Below are positions 3,082 to 63,884 of a DNA stretch of 64,000 bases, piece after piece. The stretch is from NCBI GenBank assembly GCA_043228905.1, contig JBHGNT010000005.1, positions 22,134,001 through 22,198,000 of the forward strand, read 5' to 3'. The DNA comes from Azolla caroliniana. Taxonomy: Eukaryota > Plantae > Polypodiophyta. The position numbers were made by a program, and so were the translations under genes. The notes below the pieces were generated by a model. It was given only the letters and a program-made list of their open reading frames with translations, ran no database searches and was not told the origin of the DNA. Position 1 is the stretch's first letter; every line of letters begins with the position of its first letter.

Positions 3082-3252
3082 ATTTTCTATCTTGGAACTA
3101 CACGGTTTGACCTTTGTTAATGTGGAGGTACAAGGTTCGAATCTTGTCCTGTGCAGATAACATATGTTTCAACATTTTCTTCTATTTCTTCATACTTATT
3201 TATTTGGGTATTCCATATGTTTTCCATGGTGTGTACGAAGTACACTACGACA
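3082..3252 (-). repeat. E0 3' LTR, cut off by the Copia insertion at 3081
   Basis: Follows PPT GAGGGGGTGAG on the minus strand and aligns to about 47603-47773. Confidence 0.85.
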
Positions 3253-4765: not shown

Positions 4766-5399
4766 CATACAATGAGGTGTGAGTAAAGGTTTTTGAGCCT
4801 TACACCTCCAAGATAGGAAGCAATAGACATACCATTAGACTACGTTGTTTCATTTGAAACTTAATTTTGTTCATTGTACATTTCACACAAAATTGTTTGT
4901 AGATGAGAGCTTAGATAAGGTACATGGTCATCATGCATCACATGTGATGCATGAGCGCCAAATGGCGATCATGCATCGCATGCATCTCATGCATTGTATG
5001 TATGTACTACACCCTCACATGCACATATGCATGGGGGCATTTATATAAGAAGGAGAGAAAGAGAAAGAAATGGGGGGAATGTATGCAATCAATAATAATT
5101 AATAAGTTCTAGTTATCTCATTTGCAAAGTGTCTTCTATCTCAATTTCGAAGTCAAAGGTTCAAACTGGGAATAGGAATTCCCACCTGTATCTATCTATC
5201 AATTTATCTTTAATACTTCTCGCTTGCGCTAGTCCTTCCGCCGTTTCGTTGCTTGCACTAGTCCTTCCGCGGTTCCGTGATCTTGAACGATCCCATCATC
5301 AATCCTCCATAACCACTAGCAGATAGAGGCCCAGTGCTTGTCCGCACTTGTGACGCGCACATCCCGACGTTTGACACGTGTGTCCCGCGCCACACGACA
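4766..5399 (+). repeat. E1 5' LTR (truncated)
   Basis: Near-identical to about 44427-45031; ends CGACA. Confidence 0.9.
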
Positions 5400-9805: not shown

Positions 9806-11065
9806 CTAACCGCGCATCCACCGGTATGCGCCAAAATTGGGTTCGAGTTCCGGTCCGAGTTCCGGTACTTCGTCCATCGGTTCGTCCATCAGTTCGTCCT
9901 CTGTCTCAGACTGTTCGTCGTCGTTGTCCAAGCCTCTTAGATCCGGCTCGCCGTCGTGGCGCTTCTTGAACGCTTTGATCCGCTTCCCCGCCACCGGTAT
10001 CGCCATCCTCGTACCGTCGAGTTCCGCCAGGTGATACGTCCCGTTATCGTTGGCGCTCGTTACCACGTAAGGCCCGAACCACCGCTTTGCAAACTTCCGT
10101 GTTGCCCAGTGCTGGTTGTCGAGGCTGCTGTTGTAGACTAGCACCCAGTCGCCTTCCTCGATTTTCTTTGGTCGGAGCCGGTGCGTTCGATCGAACCGGG
10201 CTTTGTTCCTCATCCTCGCCGTCCAAAGTCTCTCTACCGCTCGTTCCACGTCCTCTGGCCTCCGCTCGAACTGCCGTATACGTGCCACTAGCAGTTCTTC
10301 CCGGCTCATCTCGTCTCTCCAGTCCACTGTCGCCCAAGAGGAGATCGTCCGTTCCATCGGCATGATTGGCTTCTGTCCAAACATGAGCTCTAACGGCATG
10401 AACCCGGTTACCGAACTGTGTGTTGTCCTGTCCGCCCACAAGGCATAAGGTAACAGTCGTGGCCAGTTCCCGACCTGGCCTCCGCACGCCCGAACTAACG
10501 CTTTGATGATCGGTCCGTGTCCGTGCTCCACCTTCCCGTTCGCCTCCAGATTGTACGCTGTGGTGAGCGAGAGCTTGACCCCTAACCGGTCGAACAACTC
10601 CTCGGCCTCTTCGGCGTCCAACTCCCCGCGGTCAGCCACGATCTTCCCGACGCACCTGTACCGGCATATCACGACCTCGATCAGGAACCGACACACGGCC
10701 GCGGTCGTTTTGTTCTACAGGGCTCGGCCTTCCACCTGGTTCGTCAGGTCCTCCCGGGCCAGCACTAGATATCGCATCTGCCCTACGCCCATCGGCATCG
10801 TCACCAAATTTACCATCCATTTGAAGAGGATGGCCGGAGGGTATGTAGGGTGAAGCTCGTCCCGATGTCGGACTATGGAGTGTATCTGACAGCTCTCACA
10901 AGTCGTCACGAACCGATGCACGTCCCGGTACAGTCCTGGCCACCAGTACTTCCCCTTTAGTTTCTCGAACGTGGCCCACGTTCCATGGTGTCCAGCCCAA
11001 GGGCTGTCGTGGTAGGCCTTCAGTAACTCCTCCTGTTCCTCCTTCAGCGCCACTACTCGGAGCGG
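9806..11065 (-). pseudogene. E3 integrase
   Basis: HHCC region (HDSPWAGH..CESCQ), KIVADRGE, GKVEHGHGPI and GPY module; one internal stop. Confidence 0.93.
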
Positions 11066-11875
11066 TGTCGTAGTGTATTTCGTACACTACGTGAAAAAGT
11101 AAAAATAATATAACCGATTTAATTACATATAAATAAATAAAATAAGAATATCAAGATATTTATCACGTGCACAAGGCAAGATTCGAACCTTGTACCTCCA
11201 CATAGCCAAATCTCAACTTTACCATTATGCTACCTTATCTTTAGTGTTTTATAAATAGATTTAATAACTATAAGTGCTTTATTTGCGCCTACCTTTATTA
11301 AAAGGTAAATCATGCATTTTTAGAGTGCGTGAATATTTTATATAGAAAAACGCAAGCAACTAAAAAGTGACTCATGCACATCTAGCGTGCATGAGCACTA
11401 TATTTAGCAAATAAAAGCAAGGATTAGAAAAGCATCACATGCATATTTAGTGTGCATGAACATATTAGAAAAAAAAAAGCATGTAGTTACGCTTAGTCTC
11501 TCCCATCACTACATAAGGATGGGGAGCACAATGTAATAGGTGTGAAAAATATTTGGAAACTGGATATGTTTCTAAAAAACACCAATTAATAAACTATACT
11601 CGTGGGATTCACGAGGATTCTATATCATTCTCTTTCAACCCAAATTTATATTCTTATATTCATATTGATTAATCAAATACAATACACTCGTGGGATTCAC
11701 GAGTTTGCTATAACTCTTTCTTACAACATATTTATATTCTTACTAGCCTTATTTGTATTTTTCTTTCTCCTAGTCCAAAACCCCGGTGGTTCCCACCCGA
11801 CTCACGCAAACGATCCGGAGCCGAAAGGCACGACACAGTTGGTGAACCCGACGTGAAAAGGCGGGTGGCAAGGAG

Positions 11876-13669
11876 ATGGAGAATCAACAAGAGGCGATGA
11901 ACATGATGATGATGATGTTCGAGAGAATGCTACAAGAACAACGCGAGATGTCGGAGATCACGACAGTAGTACAACGGCTCGTGCAACAGAACGGGCAATT
12001 CGATGGAAAGGACGTGTCACGCTATCTACGTGACTACAAAATGGAGATGTTGCGATATGGTATCTCAGAAAGATTGCAAGTGTTATCTTTCAACCGGGTG
12101 GCTACGGATGAGCTTCAAGAGAGAATCCACGAGATACGGCAACAAAGCCCGATGTGGGAGTCCTTTGAAGAAGCTATACGAGACACATATGACTATCTAA
12201 GACCGAAGCGGACGAGGACATGGTCCACGAACGGCGGTCAACAGTGGGTGAAAAGCGGCCACCGACTACCACCGAAGGAGAGCTTGATGTGGAAGGGTTC
12301 GGAGATGCATGAAAAGTCACAAGTCGACATTGAAGGGGAGCTTAAAACCGAACCAAAGTCGAGGCCAACAAAGGACGAGGAGGAGGAAGATCGAGGACGA
12401 AAGGGTATCCCCACACCGGTTCCAGAGACTTCGGCGGTTGTGCCCGTGCACCAACGTGAGACCGGAGAGACGGAATGTGTCAGCGGAAAAGTGGAGGACC
12501 GGAAGGGCAACGAGGAAGACAAAGTAAATGAGCACGAACGAAGGGATTCCTTCACCATTGTTTCGGAGACTTCGGTACTGGAGCCCGGGTGTCGACATAA
12601 CACCGAAGATAAGGAAAGTGGCGGCAACGAAACGAAGGTCGAAGCCGATGCATACGAAGGAGAGATAGCCAAGGAGAACATGGCTATGGGTGAAACAATG
12701 GAGGATGATAATACCGAGGATTCCTGCCCACTAATCCTAGAGACTTCGGCGGTTGTGTCCGAGAACCAACGTGAGACCGGAGAGACAGGAGGTGGTGGCA
12801 AGAAAGGTAAAGTCGGAAGCCGGTTCGGATGGAAGGTGATCCGGACGGGATTCCGATCCGAAAGAAAGCCGAACCGGGTAAAAGACGATTCGGCCAAAAG
12901 ACGAACCGAAAGAAAGCCGAACCGGGTGAAAGGGGATTCAACCGAAAGACGACCCGAAAGAAAGCCGAACCGGGTGAAAGGGGATTCAACTGAAAGACGA
13001 CCCGAAAGAAAGCCGAACCGGGCGAATGAGGATTCGGCCGAAAGACGACCCAAAAGAAAGCCGACCCGAAAAGGGGTTGACTCGGTCAAAACCGATCGAC
13101 TGAGTCTGACTTGGCCGAACACGAATATGGATGGAAGCCGACCTAGCCGAAAGCCGATCGGACGAGACCGATCCGGAAAGAAGCTAATCCGACTCAATCG
13201 GAGGTTGGACTGGTCGAGGCTGGTGAAAACGAGGAAAAGAAAGCCAACCGAAACCAAAACCGATAGATCGAAACCGGGCCGGAAGGAGACCGACTCAATC
13301 GAAACCGAACAACCGATTCCGATTCGGCCGAATACGAATCCGATCGGAAGCCGATCAAACCGAAAGTCGATCGGACGAGAGCGATCCGGAAAAAAGTCAA
13401 GGTTGATGAAGACAAGAAAGAGGCCAGTAAAAGACACTACCACGAATGAACAAAGAATATGGTGGATCGGATGGCGACAATGGTTCGGGTGGAAAGAATG
13501 GGTCTACTCAAAATGGAGAGACAAAGTTGACATAGCGGGACAAACAGAGGATGAAGGGGAGACAACGAGCATCGGCAACTTCGGCACATACCGGAGGATG
13601 TGCGGGTTCGGAGGGGGCGAGTGTCGTAGTGTATTTCGTACACTACGTGAAAAAGTAAAAATAATATAA
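11876..13669 (+). CDS. Gag-derived N-terminus fused to acidic and basic repeat-rich regions (597 aa)
   Basis: Open ORF just after the PBS. GQFDGKDVSRYL resembles GRFSGKDATKYL in E4 Gag. An E/D-rich block is followed by 16-aa basic repeats, and the ORF runs through the PPT into LTR2. Confidence 0.7.
   Translation: MENQQEAMNMMMMMFERMLQEQREMSEITTVVQRLVQQNGQFDGKDVSRYLRDYKMEMLRYGISERLQVLSFNRVATDELQERIHEIRQQSPMWESFEEAIRDTYDYLRPKRTRTWSTNGGQQWVKSGHRLPPKESLMWKGSEMHEKSQVDIEGELKTEPKSRPTKDEEEEDRGRKGIPTPVPETSAVVPVHQRETGETECVSGKVEDRKGNEEDKVNEHERRDSFTIVSETSVLEPGCRHNTEDKESGGNETKVEADAYEGEIAKENMAMGETMEDDNTEDSCPLILETSAVVSENQRETGETGGGGKKGKVGSRFGWKVIRTGFRSERKPNRVKDDSAKRRTERKPNRVKGDSTERRPERKPNRVKGDSTERRPERKPNRANEDSAERRPKRKPTRKGVDSVKTDRLSLTWPNTNMDGSRPSRKPIGRDRSGKKLIRLNRRLDWSRLVKTRKRKPTETKTDRSKPGRKETDSIETEQPIPIRPNTNPIGSRSNRKSIGRERSGKKSRLMKTRKRPVKDTTTNEQRIWWIGWRQWFGWKEWVYSKWRDKVDIAGQTEDEGETTSIGNFGTYRRMCGFGGGECRSVFRTLREKVKII
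12860..13075 (+). repeat. 48-bp coding tandem repeat, about 4.5 copies
   Basis: Units like GAAAGAAAGCCGAACCGGGTGAAAGGGGATTCAACCGAAAGACGACCC, translating as ERKPNRVKGDSTERRP. Confidence 0.9.
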
Positions 13670-15440
13670 CCGATTTAATTACATATAAATATATAAAATA
13701 ATATATCAAGATATTTATCACGTGCATAGGGCAGGATTCGAACCCTGTACCTCCACATAGCCAAACCTCAACTTTACCATTATGCTACCTTATCTTTAGT
13801 GTTCTATAAATAGATTTAATAACTATAACTGCTTTATTTGCGCCTACCTTTATTAAAAGGTAAATCATGTATTTTTAGAGTGCGTGAATATTTTATAGAA
13901 AAACGCAAGCAACTAAAAAGTGACTCATGCACATCTAGCGTGCATGAGCACTATATTTAGCAAATAAAAGCAAGGATTAAAAAAGCATGTAGTTATGCTT
14001 AGTCTCTCCCATCACTACATAAGGATGGGGAGCACAATGTAATAGGTGTGTGAAATATTTGGAAATTGGATATATTTCCGAAAACACCAACCAATTAATA
14101 TAATCGTGGGATTCACGAATGTTGCCATCAAAAATTACTCTTATAATCTAAATATTGACTAAATATACTAAACTCGTGGGATTCACGAGATTCTTATCTT
14201 ATAACTCTTTATACCTATCCATTACTAGCCTCATCTCATATTCTTCTTTCTCCTAGTCCAAAACCCCAGTGGTTCCCACCCGACTCACGCAAACGATCCG
14301 GAGCCGAAAGGCACGACACAGTTGGTGAACCCGACGTGAAGGCGGGTGGCAAGGAGATGGAGAATCAACAAGAGGCAATGAGCATAACGATGATGATGAT
14401 GTTCGAGCGGATGCTACAAGAACAACGAGTGATGTCGGAGATCACGGGGGCAGTAAAGGGGCTCGTACAACGAAACGGACAATTCAACGGAAACGATGTG
14501 TCACGCTATCTACGTGACTACAAGGCGGAGATGATACGATGTGGGATACCGGAAGGATTGCAAGTGACATCCTTCAATCGGGTGGCCACGGATGAGCTAC
14601 AAGAGAGAATCCACAAGATATCGGCAACTTCGGCACATACCGGAGGATGTGCGGGTTCGGAGGGGGCGAGTGTCGTAGTGTATTTCGTACACTACGTGAA
14701 AAAGTAAAAATAATATAACCGATTTAATTACATATAAATAAATAAAATAAGAATATCAAGATATTTATCACGTGCACAAGGCAAGATTCGAACCTTGTAC
14801 CTCCACATAGCCAAATCTCAACTTTACCATTATGCTACCTTATCTTTAGTGTTTTATAAATAGATTTAATAACTATAAGTGCTTTATTTGCGCCTACCTT
14901 TATTAAAAGGTAAATCATGCATTTTTAGAGTGCGTGAATATTTTATATAGAAAAACGCAAGCAACTAAAAAGTGACTCATGCACATCTAGCGTGCATGAG
15001 CACTATATTTAGCAAATAAAAGCAAGGATTAGAAAAGCATCACATGCATATTTAGTGTGCATGAACATATTAGAAAAAAAAAAGCATGTAGTTATGCTTA
15101 GTCTCTCCCATCACTACATAAGGATGGGGAGCACAATGTAATAGGTGTGAAAAATATTTGGAAACTGGATATGTTTCTAAAAAACACCAATTAATAAACT
15201 ATACTCGTGGGATTCACGAGGATTCTATATCATTCTCTTTCAACCCAAATTTATATTCTTATATTCATATTGATTAATCAAATACAATACACTCGTGGGA
15301 TTCACGAGTTTGCTATAACTCTTTCTTACAACATATTTATATTCTTACTAGCCTTATTTGTATTTTTCTTTCTCCTAGTCCAAAACCCCGGTGGTTCCCA
15401 CCCGACTCACGCAAACGATCCGGAGCCGAAAGGCACGACA

Positions 15441-36960: not shown

Positions 36961-37393
36961 GACAAAGACAAAGATCATTACAAACTCACAAAGAGTGCTC
37001 AAGATATACAAAGTTATGATCGTGACAAAGATTACTATAAACACAAGAGGAGAAATCAATGTCGAGCTCTTCATGGTTGTGCTAATGAAAAAGCACTCGA
37101 TGGTGTCATAACTAGACTCGAACCCATAACCTTTTGTTACACAGGTCGAGACTTTACCATTAGGTTATGAATTGTAATTTGAAGGATATTATTTTCATTT
37201 AGGTTTTATTGGGAAATTGATGTATATTCCAGATTTCTCTGGAACATTCTAGAAACTTCAGGAGTATTCCTGAAGACACTATAAAAGGAGGCGCAAGGCA
37301 TTAGTTCGAACCAAATCGGTTCAACGCCAGTCTTAAGCCTTCTAACCACTGTTGTATATCTTCCTTCATATAATACATATATCTTTCGCATCA

Positions 37394-37433
<40 letters not shown>

Positions 37434-37667
37434 ACTCATTCCTTCTCTCAAAGTTCGACACCTCTCATAGTACTAATCCTTCTCTGTCTTAGTACTATTC
37501 CCCGACAATAGTACTAATCCTTCTTTTAGTACTAATTCCTTCTCTGCCTTAATAGAGTTCCTGACAGTTTGAACCGATTTCCCGGTGCCTGTCTGGTCTT
37601 TTCTCTCCCTCTTCCTTCTGTCTCCCTCCTTTCCTATTAGTCTCTTATTTCCCTTTTCCTTCATCCC

Positions 37668-38837
37668 ATGGCCACCGTTAGCGCTGAAGAGTATCAATCC
37701 GTTTTCTCGGAATTTCAATGCTTGAAAGAGAAGTTTCATGCTTTGGAACAAGAAAATCAACGCTTGTTGGGGGATCTTCAGCAAATTTCCTTAGAAAAGC
37801 AGCAAACGCAACAACAGCATGGGGAACTTGCGTTACGCGTGCAACAACTCGAAGCAACCATCGTAGCAATGCAACAACAAGGGCACGGAGCACAAGGGAT
37901 TCATAAAGAACCCAAGATTGGCCTTCCCACGAAGTTCGATGGAACGCGATCGCAGTTTAGAGGGTTTCTTAACCAGGTACGGTTAGTTATTCAAATGCAT
38001 CCGTCCCGATATCCCACCGATGCATCACGAGTGGGTTTAGTAGGCACGTTGTTAAATGGCTCAGCATTAGCATGGTTCGCTCCGCTACTAGAAAAGGAAT
38101 CTCCAGTACTAAATAATTTTGAAGAATTCATAAGTGAGTTTAAAGCATGTTTTGGAGATACTGACAGCATAAGGACTGCAATCAACAAAATCCGGCGATT
38201 ACGCCAAGGTGACCGTCCAGCCTCCGCATATGCTGCAGATTTCCGCCTACTCGCCGCCGATATCCCCTGGGATGATCAAGCATTGATGGAGCAGTTCCGC
38301 TATGGTCTACGCAACGATGTCAAGGATTTACTCTTGACTTTCCCTGAAGAGCCAAAATCATTAACAGAAGCAATCAGTCGAGCGGTCAGATGTGACAACC
38401 GCCTCTTCGAGCGACGTTCGGAACGACAATTTCAGATGCCGAGGGCAAGATCCGAGCCTACCTATGCCTCAGTGGTAGCGAAACCTTTTCAAAGGGAGTC
38501 ACATAATGCGCCTCCAGTAAGTACTCCAACTCCAATGGAAATTGACACTACACGTCGTCGTGGGCCGCTATCGGAGGAGGAAAAGCAACGACGCCGAACA
38601 AACCGATTATGCCTTTATTGCGGTGGACCAGGGCATATCGCGATAAACTGTCCCCATAGACCAAGAAGGCAGGTAAACCAAGTCGTTGTTAGTTCTGACT
38701 ATACTAAACCCGAGTCTATTTCAGTAGGAATCTCTGATAGTCCTCATAGTCATAATAGTCCTAATAGTACTAATAGTCTGAATCTCGCAAACAAATTTGA
38801 TGTCCTTAGCCAATTAGAAGAAGAGTTAAACGACTAA
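37668..38837 (+). CDS. gag: Chromovirus Gag
   Basis: N-terminal coiled coil, LPTKFDGTR, LRQG, FRYGL, TPMEID and the knuckle CLYCGGPGHIAINC. Confidence 0.95.
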   Translation: MATVSAEEYQSVFSEFQCLKEKFHALEQENQRLLGDLQQISLEKQQTQQQHGELALRVQQLEATIVAMQQQGHGAQGIHKEPKIGLPTKFDGTRSQFRGFLNQVRLVIQMHPSRYPTDASRVGLVGTLLNGSALAWFAPLLEKESPVLNNFEEFISEFKACFGDTDSIRTAINKIRRLRQGDRPASAYAADFRLLAADIPWDDQALMEQFRYGLRNDVKDLLLTFPEEPKSLTEAISRAVRCDNRLFERRSERQFQMPRARSEPTYASVVAKPFQRESHNAPPVSTPTPMEIDTTRRRGPLSEEEKQRRRTNRLCLYCGGPGHIAINCPHRPRRQVNQVVVSSDYTKPESISVGISDSPHSHNSPNSTNSLNLANKFDVLSQLEEELND

Positions 38838-41800
38838 GTCCAGCCAAAATAGGAGCCGTTTGGTTGGACAGCCCTAGATCTGTGCAGCCCATTAGTGGTT
38901 CCATTCCCTCTAAGCAAGTTAGTGATGTGTTCGTAGCCCAAGTAACAGTTAGTACTAAAAGTACCCCTCCAGTACATACCTTAGCCCTTCTAGATTCCGG
39001 AGCTAATTCTTGCTTCATGGATAGGAATTTTGCCCGAGCTCATCAGATATCTCTCAGAAAGCTCCCATGTCCAGCCTCAGTAGTAGTCATTGATGGTCGT
39101 CCCATTGCTTCTGGTAATATCATAGAAGAGTCGGAACCCGTTAATATTGTCCTAGATAACTTAACATGTGTAGTATCATTTAATATTATTAGTATTCCAG
39201 AACATCCCATAGTTTTAGGATTACCATGGTTCGAGTTACATAACCCAGACATAGATTGGAGGACAAGGGAAATCCGGTTGCGACAAACCCAAGGATCTAC
39301 CCAGAAGGTTGCAACCATTTCGCTACGTCAGTTGCGTGAGGAAGGGCGCAAGGAGGAAATGTTTCTCTTCGCAATATCAGTACAACCCTCCAGCACCACC
39401 AAAGAGGAGTCCACCGTTCAACTTCCCGAGAAGTATCATCAGTATGCTGATGTGTTCGATAAAGTACAAGCCAACACACTTCCTCATCATCGGCCGTACG
39501 ATTGCGCCATCGACTTACAACCGGGAAAAGAGCCGCCATGGGGGCCGATCTACAATTTGTCACCAACCGAGCTAGAAGTCCTTCGAGCCTATATAGAGGA
39601 GAATTTGGAGAACGGTTTCATTCGGCATTCGAAATCTCCAGCCGGCGCACCCATTTTCTTCGTCAAGAAAAAAGATGGCTCGCTTCGACTCGTTGTAGAT
39701 TACCGTGGCTTGAATAAGGTCACAGTAAGAAATAGGTATGCTCTTCCCCTTATCTCAAGTCTTTTAGAACGGATCAACGGTGCCAGGTTCTTCACGAAGA
39801 TCGACTTACGAGGAGCCTATAACCTCGTACGGATCCGACCAGGAGATGAATGGAAGACCGCGTTTCGCACCAGATATGGGCACTTCGAGTATACGGTCAT
39901 GCCGTTCGGACTCACTAATGCGCCGGCAGTCTTCCAGCACATGGCGAATGATATATTTCGAGATCTCTTGGATGATTTTTTGATCATCTATTTGGATGAT
40001 CTACTGGTTTATTCAAAGACCCAAGAAGAACATGATTCTCATGTACTATTAGTACTAAAACGACTTCGAGAACATGGTCTGTATGCAAAGTTAGAGAAAT
40101 GTAGTTTCGGGTGCAACCAAGTGGAGTTTCTCGGCTATGTCATCTCCTCAAAAGGCATATCTATGGACCCAGCCAAGGTCAAAACGGTGATAGAATGGCA
40201 CACTCCGCGTTCGGTGCGGGATGTGCAATGCTTCCTAGGCTTTGCAAATTTTTACCGGAAGTTCATACAAAATTACTCAAAAATTGTGTTGCCTCTCACA
40301 CAGCTCACCAGGAAGGGACAATCATTCATTTGGTCTAAAGAGACGGACATGGCTTTCGAGAGTCTTAAGAAGGCGTTTACATCAGCTCCAATTTTAGGTC
40401 ATGTGGATCCGGAAAAACCATTCATTATCGAAGCTGACGCATCGGATTTCGCATTGGGGAGCATTCTGTCACAACAAGGTAACGACGAGAAGCTACATCC
40501 TGTGGCTTTCCACTCCCGTAAGTTTGACGCCGCCGAAATCAACTACGAAATTCATGATAAAGAGCTATTAGCAATAGTTGATTCTTTTATGCAATGGAGG
40601 CATTTCCTGGAGGGATCTCCTCATCAGGTCACTGTATTCAGTGACCACAAGAACCTTGCCTACTTTCAAGATGCTCGTGTACTGAATCGACGTCAAGCTC
40701 GGTGGGCCCACTTCCTCACACGCTTCGACTTCAAAATTACATATCGTCCGGGGAAGCACCAAGGGAAGGCAGATGCATTATCACGGCGTTCGTATCTAAC
40801 ACCATGTCCCGGTGAGCCAGCTTTCGATAACCAGAAGCAAGTAATCTTGGGTCCAGCACGACTGCAAGCAGCACAGGTCTTTGACATGCCCGTGGATTCC
40901 GACATTACCAATACTATACGTGAGGACTTGAAGACTGACGCTTTCGCCCAAGCTATACTAGCACAAATTGACCCCTCTCGAGCGTCATGTTCACAATCAC
41001 AATCACCAGGTACGGATTATCGGCAATTCAAATACTGTGATGGATTACTCTTCTTTAAAGAACTTTTGTATGTTCCTAATGGTTCTTGCCGCCTTCGAGT
41101 AGTACAAAACTGCCATGACACATATACAGCAGGACATTTTGGTAGTACTAAAACATTAGATTTAGTACAACGATCATTCTGGTGGCCCCGTATGCGACAA
41201 TTTGTCGAAGATTTTGTTCGGACTTGCGATACATGCTGCAGAGCGAAAATGCCAAGACATCATCCATATGGTTTATTAGAACCATTACCAATTCCAAGCA
41301 AGCCATGGCAATCCATTGCTCTTGACTTCATTACAGATCTTCCAGTCTCTAAGGGATTCAGTGCGATTCTCACAGTGGTGGATCGATATACGAAGATGGC
41401 TCATTTCTTACCATGTACTAAAGAAATATCTAGTGAAGACACCGCCGAAATTGTCATGCGGGAAGTATGTCGGCATCATGGACTCCCTGATAATATCATC
41501 AGCGATCGTGGACCCCAGTTTGTGTCAAAATTCTGGAAGCACCTTTTTAAAATGCTGAAGGTCACTTGTAACCTCTCCTCCGGCTACCACCCACAAACCG
41601 ACGGTCAAGCCGAACGAACAAATCAAACACTGGAGCAGTATCTGCGGTGCTTTCTCAACTATCATCAGAATGACTGGGCAGATATTCTTCAGTTCGCCGA
41701 ATTTGCCTATAATAACGCTATCCACGCATCGACTAAAGTCACGCCATTCTACGCTTATACAGGATATCATCCCCGGTGGTGTGTCCTTGAAACCCCAGAA

Positions 41801-42421
41801 GTGTCCACAAATCCTTGCGCGGAGGATCGTTTGGAGCGGTTACGCAAGATACAAGCGGATTTATCTACTCAACTCCAGCAAGCTCAACAATCACACAAGG
41901 ACTACGCAGATCGTCATCGACTTCCATCCAGTTTTAACATTGGAGATCGGGTGTGGCTGCTACGACGACACATCAAGACTACTCGCCCATGTGAGAAGTT
42001 GGATTATCGGCGATTAGGTCCTTTCCGTATTATCGGGAAGATTAATGATGTCGCTTTTCGTCTCGAGCTACCTCCGCAACTTCGGATACATCCGGTGTTT
42101 CATAGTTCTCTCCTCGAACCCTATCACGAGAGCACTATCCCAGGACGTACTATACAACCACCACCTCCTATCGAGCTCGAAGATGGACCTGAGTATGAGG
42201 TCGCTGCCATCCTCGATTCCAAGATTGTTCGCAACAAGCTCTACTATCTAGTCGATTGGCTAGGATATAATCCCAGCGAGCGTACTTGGGAACCGATCGA
42301 GAATGTGACCAATGCTCGTGCTCTTCTAGAAGACTTCCATCGACGATATCCCGAGAAACCGGGTCCTCAATCCAAAACGACTCGTGGAACTCGTCGTTTT
42401 AAAGGGGGGATAGTGTCATAA
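38831..42421 (+). CDS. pol: Chromovirus Pol (PR-RT-RH-IN-chromodomain), -1 frame relative to gag
   Basis: LLDSGA, YLDD, ADASD, ISDRGPQF, HPQTDGQAE, HPVFH, and chromodomain YEVAAILDSK..YLVDWLGY..TWEP. The frame is open from 38810; the start given here is the inferred frameshift point. Confidence 0.95.
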   Translation, partial: RLSPAKIGAVWLDSPRSVQPISGSIPSKQVSDVFVAQVTVSTKSTPPVHTLALLDSGANSCFMDRNFARAHQISLRKLPCPASVVVIDGRPIASGNIIEESEPVNIVLDNLTCVVSFNIISIPEHPIVLGLPWFELHNPDIDWRTREIRLRQTQGSTQKVATISLRQLREEGRKEEMFLFAISVQPSSTTKEESTVQLPEKYHQYADVFDKVQANTLPHHRPYDCAIDLQPGKEPPWGPIYNLSPTELEVLRAYIEENLENGFIRHSKSPAGAPIFFVKKKDGSLRLVVDYRGLNKVTVRNRYALPLISSLLERINGARFFTKIDLRGAYNLVRIRPGDEWKTAFRTRYGHFEYTVMPFGLTNAPAVFQHMANDIFRDLLDDFLIIYLDDLLVYSKTQEEHDSHVLLVLKRLREHGLYAKLEKCSFGCNQVEFLGYVISSKGISMDPAKVKTVIEWHTPRSVRDVQCFLGFANFYRKFIQNYSKIVLPLTQLTRKGQSFIWSKETDMAFESLKKAFTSAPILGHVDPEKPFIIEADASDFALGSILSQQGNDEKLHPVAFHSRKFDAAEINYEIHDKELLAIVDSFMQWRHFLEGSPHQVTVFSDHKNLAYFQDARVLNRRQARWAHFLTRFDFKITYRPGKHQGKADALSRRSYLTPCPGEPAFDNQKQVILGPARLQAAQVFDMPVDSDITNTIREDLKTDAFAQAILAQIDPSRASCSQSQSPGTDYRQFKYCDGLLFFKELLYVPNGSCRLRVVQNCHDTYTAGHFGSTKTLDLVQRSFWWPRMRQFVEDFVRTCDTCCRAKMPRHHPYGLLEPLPIPSKPWQSIALDFITDLPVSKGFSAILTVVDRYTKMAHFLPCTKEISSEDTAEIVMREVCRHHGLPDNIISDRGPQFVSKFWKHLFKMLKVTCNLSSGYHPQTDGQAERTNQTLEQYLRCFLNYHQNDWADILQFAEFAYNNAIHASTKVTPFYAYTGYHPRWCVLETPEVSTNPCAEDRLERLRKIQADLSTQLQQAQQSHKDYADRHRLPSSFNIGDRVWLLRRHIKTTRPCEKLDYRRLGPFRIIGKINDVAFRLELPPQLRIHPVFHSSLLEPYHESTIPGRTIQPPPPIELEDGPEYEVAAILDSKIVRNKLYYLVDWLGYNPSERTWEPIENVTNARALLEDFHRRYPEKPGPQSKTTRGTRRFKGGIVS

Positions 42422-42703
42422 CTAGACTCGAACCCATAACCTTTTGTTACACGGGTCGAGACTTTACCATTAGGTTATGAATTGTAATTTGAAGGATATT
42501 ATTTTCATTTAGGTTTTATTGGGAAATTGATGTATATTCCAGATTTCTCTGGAACATTCTAGAAACTTCAGGAGTATTCCTGAAGACACTATAAAAGGAG
42601 GCGCAAGGCATTAGTTCGAACCAAATCGGTTCAACGCCAGTCTTAAGCCTTCTAACCACTGTTGTATATCTTCCTTCATATAATACATATATCTTTCGCA
42701 TCA

Positions 42704-42739
<36 letters not shown>

Positions 42740-42974
42740 ACTCATTCCTTCTCTCAAAGTTCGACACCTCTCATAGTACTAATCCTTCTCTGTCTTAGTA
42801 CTATTCCCCGACAATAGTACTAATCCTTCTTTTAGTACTAATTCCTTCTCTGCCTTAATAGAGTTCCTGACAGATGGAAGCCATGATGGTGAGAAAGGTT
42901 GGAATCGAAACTCTCATGGTTTAAATTTTGATGACAAGTATGATAGGTTTAATAAGAGCCACAAACAAGAGAAG

Positions 42975-44270: not shown

Positions 44271-45031
44271 TGTCGTGAAGATTTTCGGCAACGGTGTGAA
44301 AATCACGTGGAACGAGGAAAATCGAGAAGGTGCAATATGCACATGTATGGAAGGGGTGATGGTTAATGTGCACATGTGATGTGTGTTTAGGTGATCATTA
44401 CACATATATATATAATAAGCCTAACGCATACAATGAGGTGTGAGTAAAGGTTTTTAAACCTTACACCTCCAAGATAGGAGGCAATAGACATACCATTAGA
44501 CTACGTTGTTTCATTTGAAAGTTAATTTTGTTCATTGTATATTTCACACAAAATTGTTTGTACATGAGAGCTTAGATAAGGTACATGGTCATCATGCATC
44601 ACATGTGATGCATGAGCGCCAAATGGCGATCATGCATCGCATGCATCTCATGCATTGTATGTATGTACTACACCCTCACATGCACATATGCATGGGGGCA
44701 TCTATATAAGAAAGAGAGAAAGAGAAAGAAAGGGGGGGAATGTATGCAATCAATAATAATTAATAAGTTCTAGTTATCTCATTGGCAAAGTGTCTTCTAG
44801 CTCAATTTCGAAGTCAAAGGTTCAAACCGGGAATAAGAATTCCCACCTGTATCTATCTATCAATTTATCTTTAATACTTCTCGCTTGTGCTAGTCCTTCT
44901 GCGGTTCCGTGATCTTGAACGATCCCATCATCAATCCTCCATAACCACTAGCGGATAGAGGCCCGGTGCTTGTCCGCGTTTGTGACGCACACATCCCGAC
45001 ATTTGGCACGTGTGTCACGCGCCACGCGACA
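44271..45031 (+). repeat. E1 3' LTR
   Basis: TGTCGTGAAG...GCGACA, directly after the PPT. Confidence 0.92.
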
Positions 45032-47155: not shown

Positions 47156-47773
47156 TGTCGCGAAGATTCACGTGTGTGTGCTATTGGAGTGGGACCATTG
47201 GGGTCTTAGACCAAGGAGGACATCCGGCAAATTATTGAAAAGACGATGATGTGAACGTAGAGTTGAGGAAAATAGAGCCCTACTTGAAAAGAACAAAAAA
47301 TTGTACACTTGCGAAGATAAATGAGAGTAAGAATAAGAAGAATGTTGAATTTATGATAATGATGATCATATCACATATTTAGCCCCCGTTATACAAGCCC
47401 TAGTAGGATTTTTATAGGTCTCTCCATGCACAAAACTATGGCCTTAGGACCATGGTTTTTGAGCACACGGTTAGCGTGTGACATGTACAAAACCATGGAT
47501 TTGTGTACACGGTATGGTTGTTTGCTATTGATTTTTGAATATGACAAAGAAAATATACAAAATTTAAACCATTTAATAGTAGCTCTAGTGGTAAGCCAAT
47601 TGTTTCCTATTGTGCAGTTGGAAGGTTCGGCCTTTGTTAATGTGGAAGTACAAGGTTCGAATCTTGTCTTGTGCATATAACCATATGTTTCAATATTTTC
47701 TTCTATTTCTTCATACTTATTCATTTGGGTACTCCGTACGTTTTCCATGGTGTGTACAAAGTACACTACGACA
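47156..47773 (-). repeat. E0 5' LTR
   Basis: TG..CA termini, followed on the minus strand by the same gag start (MENRQEA) as E5. Confidence 0.85.
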
Positions 47774-48934
47774 ACACAACATTGGATTTTGCTATTTTCG
47801 ATGAGAATTCGATGCAGTGCATCAGATTCTCGTTGAAAGTGTTATTATTTATTTTTGAAAAAAAAAGTTTTAGTTATCAACGAGAATCTGATGCAGTGAG
47901 TCGGATTTCTATTGAAAATCCATCGGATTCTAGTTGAAAGTCAATGAATTTTAACTCATTTCCACTAGTTTTCTAGGTAGTTACACCTCCATTTTGTGTA
48001 GTTTTCACCACGTTTTTTGCTAAGAAATACTCATTTATGGATTTTAGTGAGCCTGGTGAAAAAATACGGATCTTTAAGCTGAAGATCCCCACTCCAACGA
48101 AGAGAAGTCTCGTTGATCCTTGTTTGAATCAGTTGGTGATGGAACATTGAAGTCATCTGTAGGCAACACAAAAGGGAAACTAATTATGGTCCTTGAATTC
48201 GTTAGAGCATAGACACACAAATTATAGTAAGTAGAATGGAGTCTAGTTTATGTGGAGGAGGATGGAGTATTGCTCCTAATATTCGCAACGACATAGGGTA
48301 AAGGGAAGTTGCAGTTAGGTAAAACTTTCAACTAGTTTGACGTTTCTACTTGGAGTAAACTATCATTTTTTCTATGATTGGAAAGTTATTTTTACAAACT
48401 TCAGCACACGACCAAAAGAATATGACTTTTGGAAGCAGCGCTGAATGCGATATTTTCATTGAGTAGCACCACGATGGAGGAGGTGTTGTTTTTTGTAGGT
48501 GAAGCTATTTGTTTTATATGGGGTGGTCTTGATTAGGCCAAAATCTTGAGCCCAATATTGTTGAGACTCTCAGAGTTGCACGAGTGTTCAATAGCTTTCT
48601 AGTTAATTATGTTGCATTTTCTTTGTAATACTGGACTTTTTTTGTATATTGCCTTTGGCCACTTTATGTTAATACCAATGGAGGATATTTTTTAAGGAAA
48701 AAAAAGAAAAAGAAAAGAAGTTATTGTACTTTGGTTTCCATCCATGGATAAGATGTCATGTGTTAATGGTTACAAGGTTATTCACAATTTCTTAAAACAT
48801 TCCAGTTTTCTAAAGTTAAGGTAGTTTGCATTGTTATTTAAATTTCTTCTCTCGAAACATTAGTAATTCAAGAATATGACAATTATTCTAGTTACTCCTA
48901 TAACATTAGACAACCATTAAAGAATTTTACAATT

Positions 48935-52950: not shown

Positions 52951-53489
52951 TGTTATTGCAGGAGAAATTGAGTGAAGTTGTAGCCACTCTAAAGAGCCAA
53001 TACAATGGCCTCTGATGGAATTGAAAGACAATGATCAGCCTTCATCCAACAATGGTCGTCCTCTCCCGTTCTTGAGTCAGTGGACCTCCATATAAGATGG
53101 AACTATCACATCCCTACTAGGATTTGTATATAACATTCTCATCTGTAAAATTTGATAACTAATGGAACGAGTTTTTTTGGGAAAAAAGAGGATATTAAGG
53201 TGATATGTGTTGAAACAAAATTTATCTCAACGACACTTAATTATTATAAGGACTACTTTTTAAGTAATGGTTTACACCCTTTTATATTTAGAGTTGAAGG
53301 GTTCACATTCAATTGGTTAGGCCAACTAGCCTTTCCACCCTATGTGCATATATTACAACACTCATGGATACAAACCATTACATAGTCTATAGCTTAATAT
53401 GATACCATTGTTGAAATTGTTAAGTACTATATTCCTTCAACCACCAAGTAATTGCAAATTGTTTACGCATTATGTGTATGTGTATGCGT

Positions 53490-54338
53490 TGTCGTAGTGT
53501 ATTTCGTACACTACGTGAAAAACTTATAAAGTACCGATTTAATAAATATGAATAAATAATAGAAAATATTAAAATATATATAAAATGCATAGGGCAAGAT
53601 TCAAACCTTGCACGTCCATGTTAATAATGTAATGTCTTACCATTGCACTAGCATTTCATTAGTGTTAAAATGTAGATGTTCCACATAGAAAATTTAGTTC
53701 ACCTAGGATAAACTTTAGTTAAAAGAAAACGCATGCTAAAAGAAAAAAGCTACGCATGGACATCTAGCGTGCATGAACGCTATAGTTGATAAAAAAACGC
53801 ACAAGTTAGAAAAAGCATGATCACTTTAAATAAAGCATATAGTCTATCTATAGGAAAAGCATGGAGTCTATAGTTAGAGAAAAAAAAGCATGGATTCCTA
53901 AGACTCCCTCATCACTACATAAGGATGGGGAGCACAATGTAATAGGTGTGTAAAATATTTGGGAAATTGGATATATTTCCTAAAACACCAATAATAAAAT
54001 AGAATCGTGGGATTCACGAAGTTTTATATAATCTATCTCTTTCAATCTAAATTCATATTCTTACATAAATATTGATTAATGTAATACTTGTGGGATTCAC
54101 AAGGTTTGATCTCTTTTCTCAATCTACTTTAATCTATTCTAAACTATTTCAATTTATTACTACGATTAAGATAAACTAAAACAATTATACTTGTGGGATT
54201 CACAAGTTTCTATATCTCTTTCTTATAATCTATTCATATTCATAACTAGATTAGCCTCAAATTCTTCCTCCTCCTAGTCCAAAACCCCGGTGGTTCCCAC
54301 TTGACTCACACAACGATCCGGAGCCGAAAGGCACAATA
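53490..54338 (+). repeat. Solo LTR of the E5/E0 family
   Basis: Starts TGTCGTAGTGTATTTCGTACACTAC, ends GCCGAAAGGCACAATA (mutated GCACGACA), TSD GCGT on both sides. Confidence 0.92.
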
Positions 54339-63332: not shown

Positions 63333-63884
63333 TGTGAGGCGGAACTGCAGGGGTCTGTCCTAGACCTGAAGGATTCGAAGTTTGTACTAGCTTTAGTGAG
63401 AAAGTATTTAAGATAGATTGAGGGAGATTGATATGGAGAGAGAGAGATTGAGATAAAGATTGAACACTTGCCTTTAGATTTGAGAGACAAGATACATCAC
63501 CATTAGGATAACTTGATTTATTCTTATTATTTGTACTAATTTCTTCCCAATTTTTTCATTAGCCCCATCTTGCTTGACCTCCATTCTTTTATAGATCCCC
63601 CCATGCATATGATGCATGGGAGGGTGCAAGACATGCACGTAATGCATGAAATGCATGCGATGCATGTTTGCCATGTCACTCATCCAAGCTCTCATGTATG
63701 AGATTTTACATATGAAAAGTACAATGATAAAAGTATGACTCTAAAGTCATGACTTAGCTTAGTGGTAAGTCATGTGGCTCTTATGTAGGAGGTGCAAGTT
63801 TCAAATTCTTACTTACACCCCCGTAAACACAAAATTTTACAAGGCTTTAGTCTTGTATTTACAAATGTTTAACTGCATATTACA
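63333..63884 (-). repeat. Probable LTR related to the E1 LTR
   Basis: Contains the reverse complement of the CATGCATCGCATGCAT..CATATGCATGGGG block of the E1 LTR. Boundaries are guessed from TG..CA ends. Confidence 0.55.

Follow-up and report, generated by a model that had tools for sequence, protein, structure and literature searches.

The closest described counterparts of the locus reported here are Helenus and TRIMp3, miniature non-autonomous elements that carry tRNA-like units in their long terminal repeats (LTRs) (Kojima 2024, PMC10886601). According to the available part of that account, a plant case exists in Selaginella, and the units are proposed to have arisen through capture of a SINE or a tRNA. 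Helenus elements are 311-1263 nt long and non-coding, and their autonomous partners are expected to use Pol II and not to share the LTR stretches; the same source notes tRNA-like parts in 'not a few' further LTRs of Repbase, which it leaves unanalysed. Cassandra elements, the only Pol III case named in the available part of a 2025 plant review, have a 5S type 1 promoter in sense orientation that drives the RNA of a miniature element (PMC7215508, PMC12786077, as far as these sources were accessible). In the accessible part of PMC3993851, the miRNA cassettes of foamy-virus LTRs are Pol III units with conserved hairpin products established by experiment. Beyond retroelements, yeast tDNA barriers and the ETC and COC B-box sites are host loci with measured occupancy (PMC2040200, PMC3395662, in the parts available).

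The window, meaning the whole 64,000-nt stretch of Azolla caroliniana DNA analysed here, is filled by a nested pile of LTR retrotransposons (self-comparison, Pfam), several of which carry a tRNA-shaped Pol III-type promoter module in U3. As in Helenus and TRIMp3, it is a tRNA-like stretch in LTRs, conserved around boxes A and B and mostly not a working tRNA, but the modules here occur in the E5 element (4.4 kb) and a chromovirus (5.8 kb, gag and pol). The Helenus unit, as described in the same part of PMC10886601, is in sense in four LTR entries and is thought to make template RNA, whereas the present unit is antisense and, unlike that of Helenus, lies in the U3 of 460-850-nt LTRs with a TATA box, coding elements included. 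Cassandra is alike in placing a Pol III promoter in plant LTRs and in forming tandem LTR-internal-LTR arrays resembling E5, and the foamy-virus cassettes are alike in being A/B-box Pol III units in the LTRs of autonomous retroelements, although they are not tRNA-shaped relics. The yeast sites have A and B boxes that act on chromatin irrespective of orientation, the mode of action proposed for the module, yet the present site belongs to a mobile element. In Ty3, the bipartite primer-binding site (PBS) likewise places sequence complementary to the D and T arms of a tRNA in the U3 of Gypsy RNA, but the Ty3 segments match the primer, whereas here there is a full 18-nt PBS or self-priming, and only a weak match to the primer end (PMC5371799, accessible part).

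The first-pass annotation knew of no description of such LTRs for these lineages, and they are less novel than it supposed, as Helenus and the foamy-virus LTR Pol III units precede them. What is new is the antisense orientation, in the U3 of long LTRs with their own TATA box, within coding elements of two lineages. A literature search mostly confined to open-access journals found no antisense tRNA-type unit in the U3 of bryophyte Gypsy LTRs; the remainder of the Helenus supplement and of the Repbase LTRs could include antisense cases. The features of E5 are as follows.

11066..11835, plus strand: LTR1 of E5, TG...CA, 770 nt
11139..11142, minus strand: first T4 run past the module, a possible Pol III terminator (presumed role; most relatives have one at +11)
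11168..11239, minus strand: tRNA-shaped module in U3 of LTR1, tRNA positions 1-73 (Rfam tRNA model)
11180..11189, minus strand: B-box of LTR1, tRNA positions 52-61
11190..11221, minus strand: 32-nt spacer of LTR1; the anticodon-arm part varies, AGGT at 44-47 is conserved
11222..11232, minus strand: A-box of LTR1, tRNA positions 8-19
11509..11516, plus strand: TATA-like box of the presumed LTR Pol II promoter, about 270 nt further into the LTR than the module
11840..11857, plus strand: E5 PBS, the full 18 nt complementary to a tRNA 3' end
11846..13669, plus strand: E5 open frame that begins gag-like and contains repeats, without a Pfam hit and without pol
13610..13621, plus strand: E5 polypurine tract (PPT), which sets the polarity of the element
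13723..13794, minus strand: module in the internal LTR2 (13622-14318), from the box scan
14773..14844, minus strand: module in LTR3 (14671-15440), from the box scan

E5 is a three-LTR tandem, in the order LTR, gag-like ORF, LTR, short internal part, LTR (11066-15440). It is flanked on both sides by the 4-bp duplication GCGG and sits within another Gypsy integrase. Its primer is one that we take to be tRNA-Trp, and its 607-codon frame lacks pol, hence it is non-autonomous. LTR1 and LTR3 are identical at 769 of 770 positions, while the inner LTR2 has diverged; E5 therefore moved recently as a single unit, and its outer LTRs count as one data point. Repeated CTCGTGGGATTCACGAG near-palindromes occupy the R/U5 of the E5 family (11588-11742 and copies), and the U3 between module and TATA box holds many CATGCA/TGCATG motifs (five in LTR1, seven in the LTR of family x, six in the 63 kb LTR, at 11310-11470, 44590-44700 and 63600-63700 respectively, and none in the LTRs of families q, y and z, of the copia elements or of the chromovirus). 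We presume these to be RY-type motifs, possibly sites for B3 factors.

The A-box, 32-nt and B-box arrangement proposed for the minus strand of LTR1 was recovered at 11232-11222 and 11189-11180, and the same layout in LTR2 (13787/13744) and LTR3 (14837/14794). Nowhere else in the window does an A-(20-70)-B pattern match without a mismatch. The module spans LTR positions 103-174, and is antisense relative to PBS, ORF and PPT, a polarity common to all carriers. None of 1500 dinucleotide shuffles of LTR1, a control that the first-pass annotation had named, gave a module with at most one mismatch on either strand, and six such modules occur in the window versus one in 12 block-shuffled windows. Chance origin of the module is excluded.

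The tRNA ancestry that had been proposed for the module is likewise supported, by an alignment of full tRNA length: positions 1-71 of the Rfam tRNA model align to 11169-11239 with a one-base deletion in the T-arm, at 14.7 bits against a cut-off of 29 bits. ARAGORN reported no tRNA genes in the whole window, as did the whole-window Rfam search, and the module appeared among 39 mostly spurious ARAGORN hits with lowered thresholds (ps80); the Rfam model gave no match for the chromovirus copy. The cloverleaf of a functional tRNA gene is missing, given the sub-threshold Rfam score, the lack of ARAGORN genes and a broken anticodon stem. Across the 42 related LTRs introduced below, consistent pairing is missing from the anticodon and acceptor arms. 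The first-pass annotation had also read CAAG..CTTG in LTR1 and CAGG..CCTG in LTR2 as a compensatory change; the difference exists, but across the same 42 LTRs positions 51 and 62 vary independently (AT 16, GT 10, AC 8, GC 4, other 4; Fisher p=1) and do not covary, and the B-box hairpin is shifted by one base relative to a tRNA T-arm. A shared RNA fold was rejected, none being common to six copies.

A mismatch scan combined with a family profile located further carriers, all antisense and in U3, in the elements listed here.

3104..3252, minus strand: 3' LTR remnant of E0; B-box at 3134-3143 on the plus strand, A-box side replaced by a copia LTR (junction about 3101-3104)
4790..4842, minus strand: degenerate module in the truncated 5' LTR of family x (4766-5399), from mismatch scan/profile
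37115..37167, minus strand: module at the start of the chromovirus 5' LTR (37104-37566); A-box with one mismatch, 32 nt, exact B-box
37641-38837, plus strand: chromovirus gag, open frame
38810-42421, plus strand: chromovirus pol with chromodomain, open frame
42425..42477, minus strand: same module in the chromovirus 3' LTR (42414-42872), from the mismatch scan
44451..44503, minus strand: degenerate module in a family x LTR (44271-45031), from mismatch scan/profile
47604..47675, plus strand: module in the 5' LTR of E0, a minus-strand element with gag-pol remnants (LTR about 47156-47773)
53586..53657, minus strand: module in a solo LTR (53490-54338), B-box with C56T
63755..63807, plus strand: degenerate module in an old x-related LTR on the minus strand, from mismatch scan/profile

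The modules at 3104-3155, 4790-4842, 37115-37167, 42425-42477, 44451-44503 and 63755-63807 are additions to the first-pass annotation. Two that it did list are present in altered form: the solo LTR has the module, but its B-box is not intact (C56T), and that of E0 has a poor A-box, with two mismatches in the best 11-nt register and, by eye, one in a 12-nt register. E0 and E5 can be aligned only over their outer 140 nt, which include the module. The two-mismatch score of x-type modules was reached in 8/800 and 3/800 shuffles; at non-universal positions the x and 63755 modules match the E5 profile with z of 3.5-4.1. A further A-33-B unit, degenerate and in sense orientation, may lie past the TATA box of family x (44775-44828, plus strand, and the corresponding stretch of the 63 kb LTR), with two and three mismatches. 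No module was found in families q, y and z, which are GC-rich, younger sisters, or in four copia-type LTRs, the best matches having 4-6 mismatches. An integrase tree (about 110 residues, midpoint root) groups x with q, y and z (support 93) and leaves E0 outside, which tentatively suggests loss of the module in q, y and z.

The non-chromoviral pol in the window is about 50-65% identical to liverwort proteins and up to 79% to sequences in other assemblies. The chromovirus pol has best relatives at up to 81%, with algal and fungal relatives as well, and the two pol types are 22-39% identical to each other over matched stretches. Sequencing runs containing LTR1 include leaf and plant metagenomes. 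We infer the labels 'Phygy-like' for the non-chromoviral lineage and 'Tcn1-like' for the chromovirus, rather than deriving them from placement with reference elements; clade ranges and Tcn1 traits follow the available part of PMC6317226. Taken with the relatives above, these clade ranges pointed to a bryophyte-like host. Both traits of the Tcn1 chromovirus clade, a chromodomain integrase (Pfam Chromo) and self-priming, are present in the 37-42 kb element, whose LTRs differ by one substitution and four gap positions and whose self-priming site follows the 5' LTR.

The chromovirus module falls within the first 72 bases of both LTRs, and none of 1500 shuffles of its LTR gave a module with at most one mismatch. 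Beyond the universal tRNA positions, its resemblance to the E5 profile (z of 0.9-3.2 in four copies) is not clearly above that of seven tRNA-like controls (1.4-2.6), and so homology of the chromovirus and E5 modules is not supported. Two extra LTRs of the chromovirus family have exact boxes at 33 nt (L034) and A-like and B-like boxes at 32 nt with a decayed B-box (L016). The coincidence of tRNA position 72 with the first base of the chromovirus LTR, kept in neither of these, was dismissed as meaningless. Six genome-contig loci contain a more distant chromovirus pol (38-56%), of which five were scanned and two had a readable LTR start (L083, L085); neither has a module. The chromovirus LTR 17-mer had zero matches in genome contigs, and its 16 viral matches, of 17-21 nt each, were attributed to chance. 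No relatives were found in viral contigs searched with both integrases.

Conservation of the module was assessed in LTRs fetched by a terminal motif; since this anchor lies 80 nt from the module, the sample was not chosen by the module. It comprised 65 loci; the assemblies behind 64 of these have neighbouring accession numbers, and thus perhaps represent one campaign and few host species. Sixteen were too short (<215 nt), at least two of which (L062, L065) lack the A-box side by eye, two had no homology beyond the anchor and two were duplicates. Seven more (L003, L007, L010, L013, L024, L026, L061) were dropped for a homology break in or beside the module, which favours the spacing count. The final set of 42 consists of 38 loci and four window LTRs, with a mean flank identity of 0.67.

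The spacer is 32 nt long in 39/42, while 32-column flanks have their modal length in 22, 16, 28 and 23 of the 42. Consensus-exact A-boxes occur in 29/42, B-boxes in 15/42 and both in 12/42. Changes were mapped onto a tree built from flank columns only, with those on internal branches standing for lineages that kept amplifying. These affect one of 12 invariant box positions (C56) versus 26 of the 51 remaining positions in the module (Fisher p=0.0065), a contrast seen at both G/C sites (1/7 versus 11/20) and A/T sites (0/5 versus 15/31), and in 25/25 resampled trees (p 0.003-0.009). A tree-free version gave p=0.15, 0.022 and 0.049 at allele counts of at least 4, 6 and 8. All 11 internal A-box changes are at positions 11-13, which are free or Y in the consensus. 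The conserved block exceeds the boxes, extending to 41-50 and 63-73, and AGGT at 44-47 is present in 34/42 LTRs and in all other carriers.

Depth-weighted contigs gave a fainter signal. These came from runs X3, X5, X15 and X19 (three organism labels besides A), cover only contigs at least 80% alike, and report depth, which is not equivalent to copy number. Variable sites numbered 5/21 in boxes versus 11/32 in the spacer, and no indels in the module were listed at 2% depth in the four runs. This depth-weighted contrast is small. Between x and its old relative the module (identity about 0.65) falls below the CATG-repeat/TATA region (0.8-0.9). Sequence constraint on the boxes and their spacing is supported by the internal-branch and spacing results. 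Its pattern, with invariant box bases, 44-47 and spacing but a free anticodon arm, is one that the needs of a type 2 promoter would predict: in the available part of PMC11724288, TFIIIC contacts positions 44-47, where mutations affect binding, and 32 bp is the commonest A-B spacing in yeast.

The exception is C56, a base that TFIIIC reads through contacts on the T-loop C (PMC11724288, same part). Among the 42 LTRs it is C in 21, T in 20 and G in one, with six internal-branch changes, while by depth T56 amounts to 8-22% and A57 to 7-18% over the four runs. In the E5-like clade (n=14) the site is TG in ten, CG in three, CA in none and otherwise in one, and of other CpGs several are largely intact (12, 13 and 14 of 14), two being less so (4 and 8 of 14). 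T56 therefore looks inherited rather than a product of symmetric CpG decay, and may be carried by an active lineage. G10T reaches 41% of depth in X15, 6-10% in X3 and X5, and less than 1% in X19.

Our tentative preference, held with considerable doubt, is that the module has been retained as a TFIIIC/Pol III site with a cis effect at the edge of the LTR, where it would protect or prime the LTR promoter. The antisense A-box, 32-nt spacer and B-box would bind TFIIIC, and possibly Pol III; bound TFIIIC would then form a barrier or an open-chromatin seed for the LTR's own Pol II promoter further in, with TFIIIB occupying AT-rich sequence deeper in the LTR, between unit and TATA box. Transcription of an antisense RNA of about 85-100 nt, terminated by a T run within the LTR, would be optional and limited to the E5/E0 family, and the element would benefit inside nested, methylated repeat piles. 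The unit cannot make template RNA, because its orientation is wrong. In the chromovirus, Pol III would run out of the LTR, therefore DNA binding rather than a product would be the common denominator. The same polarity and U3 position in a distant, self-priming chromovirus favour such a site in cis; the frequent C56T, the module-less families q, y and z, and the fact that both boxes are exact in only 12/42 LTRs count against it. According to the parts of the respective sources that were available, barrier activity of tDNAs in fission yeast depends on TFIIIC and Pol III but not on orientation (PMC2040200), and a B-box site can by itself be a boundary (PMC3395662). The broader proposition, that in bryophytes two distant coding Gypsy lineages carry an outward tDNA-type insulator at the LTR edge, stay transcribable in nested heterochromatin by recruiting TFIIIC/Pol III and so scatter thousands of TFIIIC sites over the host genome, is somewhat unlikely.

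The same frequent and apparently inherited C56T, together with G10T in one organism, would be expected if the module were instead a neutral relic, in which a tRNA or the head of a tRNA-derived SINE in an ancestral LTR has been hitch-hiking, any constraint being due to chance or to a site for a Pol II factor that overlaps it. The decayed boxes in x and the module-less q, y and z agree with this, the integrase tree makes the module seem dispensable, and the host DNA commonly contains tRNA genes and degenerate copies of tRNAs. We nonetheless consider neutrality unlikely: internal-branch changes avoid the invariant box sites, the spacing is fixed, the E0-E5 alignment is limited to the outer 140 nt with the module, and a distant lineage has the same polarity in the same place. 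Selection might alternatively act on genomic RNA, in which U3 is complementary to a tRNA: by annealing to the D and T arms of a packaged tRNA, the primer or another one, U3 would join the RNA ends for initiation or strand transfer. Such pairing, for which the U3-R of HIV-1 has a similar tRNA-like stretch, would account for the antisense polarity, the U3 position and the D-loop and T-arm conservation without invoking Pol III. It has a precedent in the Ty3 bipartite PBS, where U3 anneals to the primer's T-arm and D-arm (PMC5371799, accessible part). However, the chromovirus has the module despite self-priming from its own LTR, A-box positions 11-13 are free to change between sub-families, as a promoter allows, and module positions 59-73 match the primer end deduced from the window's PBS (primer 3' end only) at 7/15 in most copies, with 6/12 (p=0.07) for positions 62-73 of LTR1; a search for the primer tRNA gene at 31 loci found no tRNAs. 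We therefore rate pairing with a tRNA as quite unlikely.

It is very unlikely that the product itself matters, as a short antisense Pol III RNA acting as decoy or small-RNA precursor, in the manner of the foamy-virus LTR miRNA units with A and B boxes (PMC3993851, accessible part). A T4 run within 15 nt of the module end occurs in 36/42 LTRs, but is equally frequent in T-rich neighbouring windows, six copies have no common fold, and the chromovirus unit has no terminator within its LTR. An upstream TATA-like stretch is present in 24/42 LTRs, in AT-rich DNA. Finally, the single copia junction within the E0 3' LTR module might indicate a landing pad or decoy for elements that target Pol III start sites; this is highly improbable, as the junction lies inside the unit (at about position 21) rather than upstream, and no insertion stack occurs upstream of any module in the window.

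Were TFIIIC to bind, as the preferred cis-acting site supposes, autonomous retrotransposons of plants would employ a Pol III promoter to shape chromatin around their Pol II promoter rather than to copy themselves, giving them a self-insulation route against silencing and making them a large mobile source of TFIIIC sites. If instead tRNA pairing held, the bipartite primer site of Ty3 would extend to plant Gypsy elements. Either way, such LTRs would inflate the counts of tRNA pseudogenes and B-boxes in these genomes.

Several observations concern the surroundings of these LTRs. Just outside the E0 5' LTR (47806-47898) lies a short inverted repeat with an AT-rich loop, with weak hits only to miRNA families. 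By raw count, a minimum of six of the 65 loci (L051, L008, L029, L005, L023, L017) have tRNA genes or degenerate tRNA copies, partly as tandem arrays, no more than 1.5 kb from the LTRs; at L051 the LTR begins about five bases past a tRNA 3' end. The four bases 5' of the LTR (L001-L065; window 11062-11065 and 53486-53489) have a central CG in 36 of 46 distinct non-PPT flanks, ACGT (13) and ACGG (6) among the target tetramers, while the CG frequency in flanks is only 0.04. Such a strong target preference suggests that this lineage inserts at CpG and duplicates 4 bp there.
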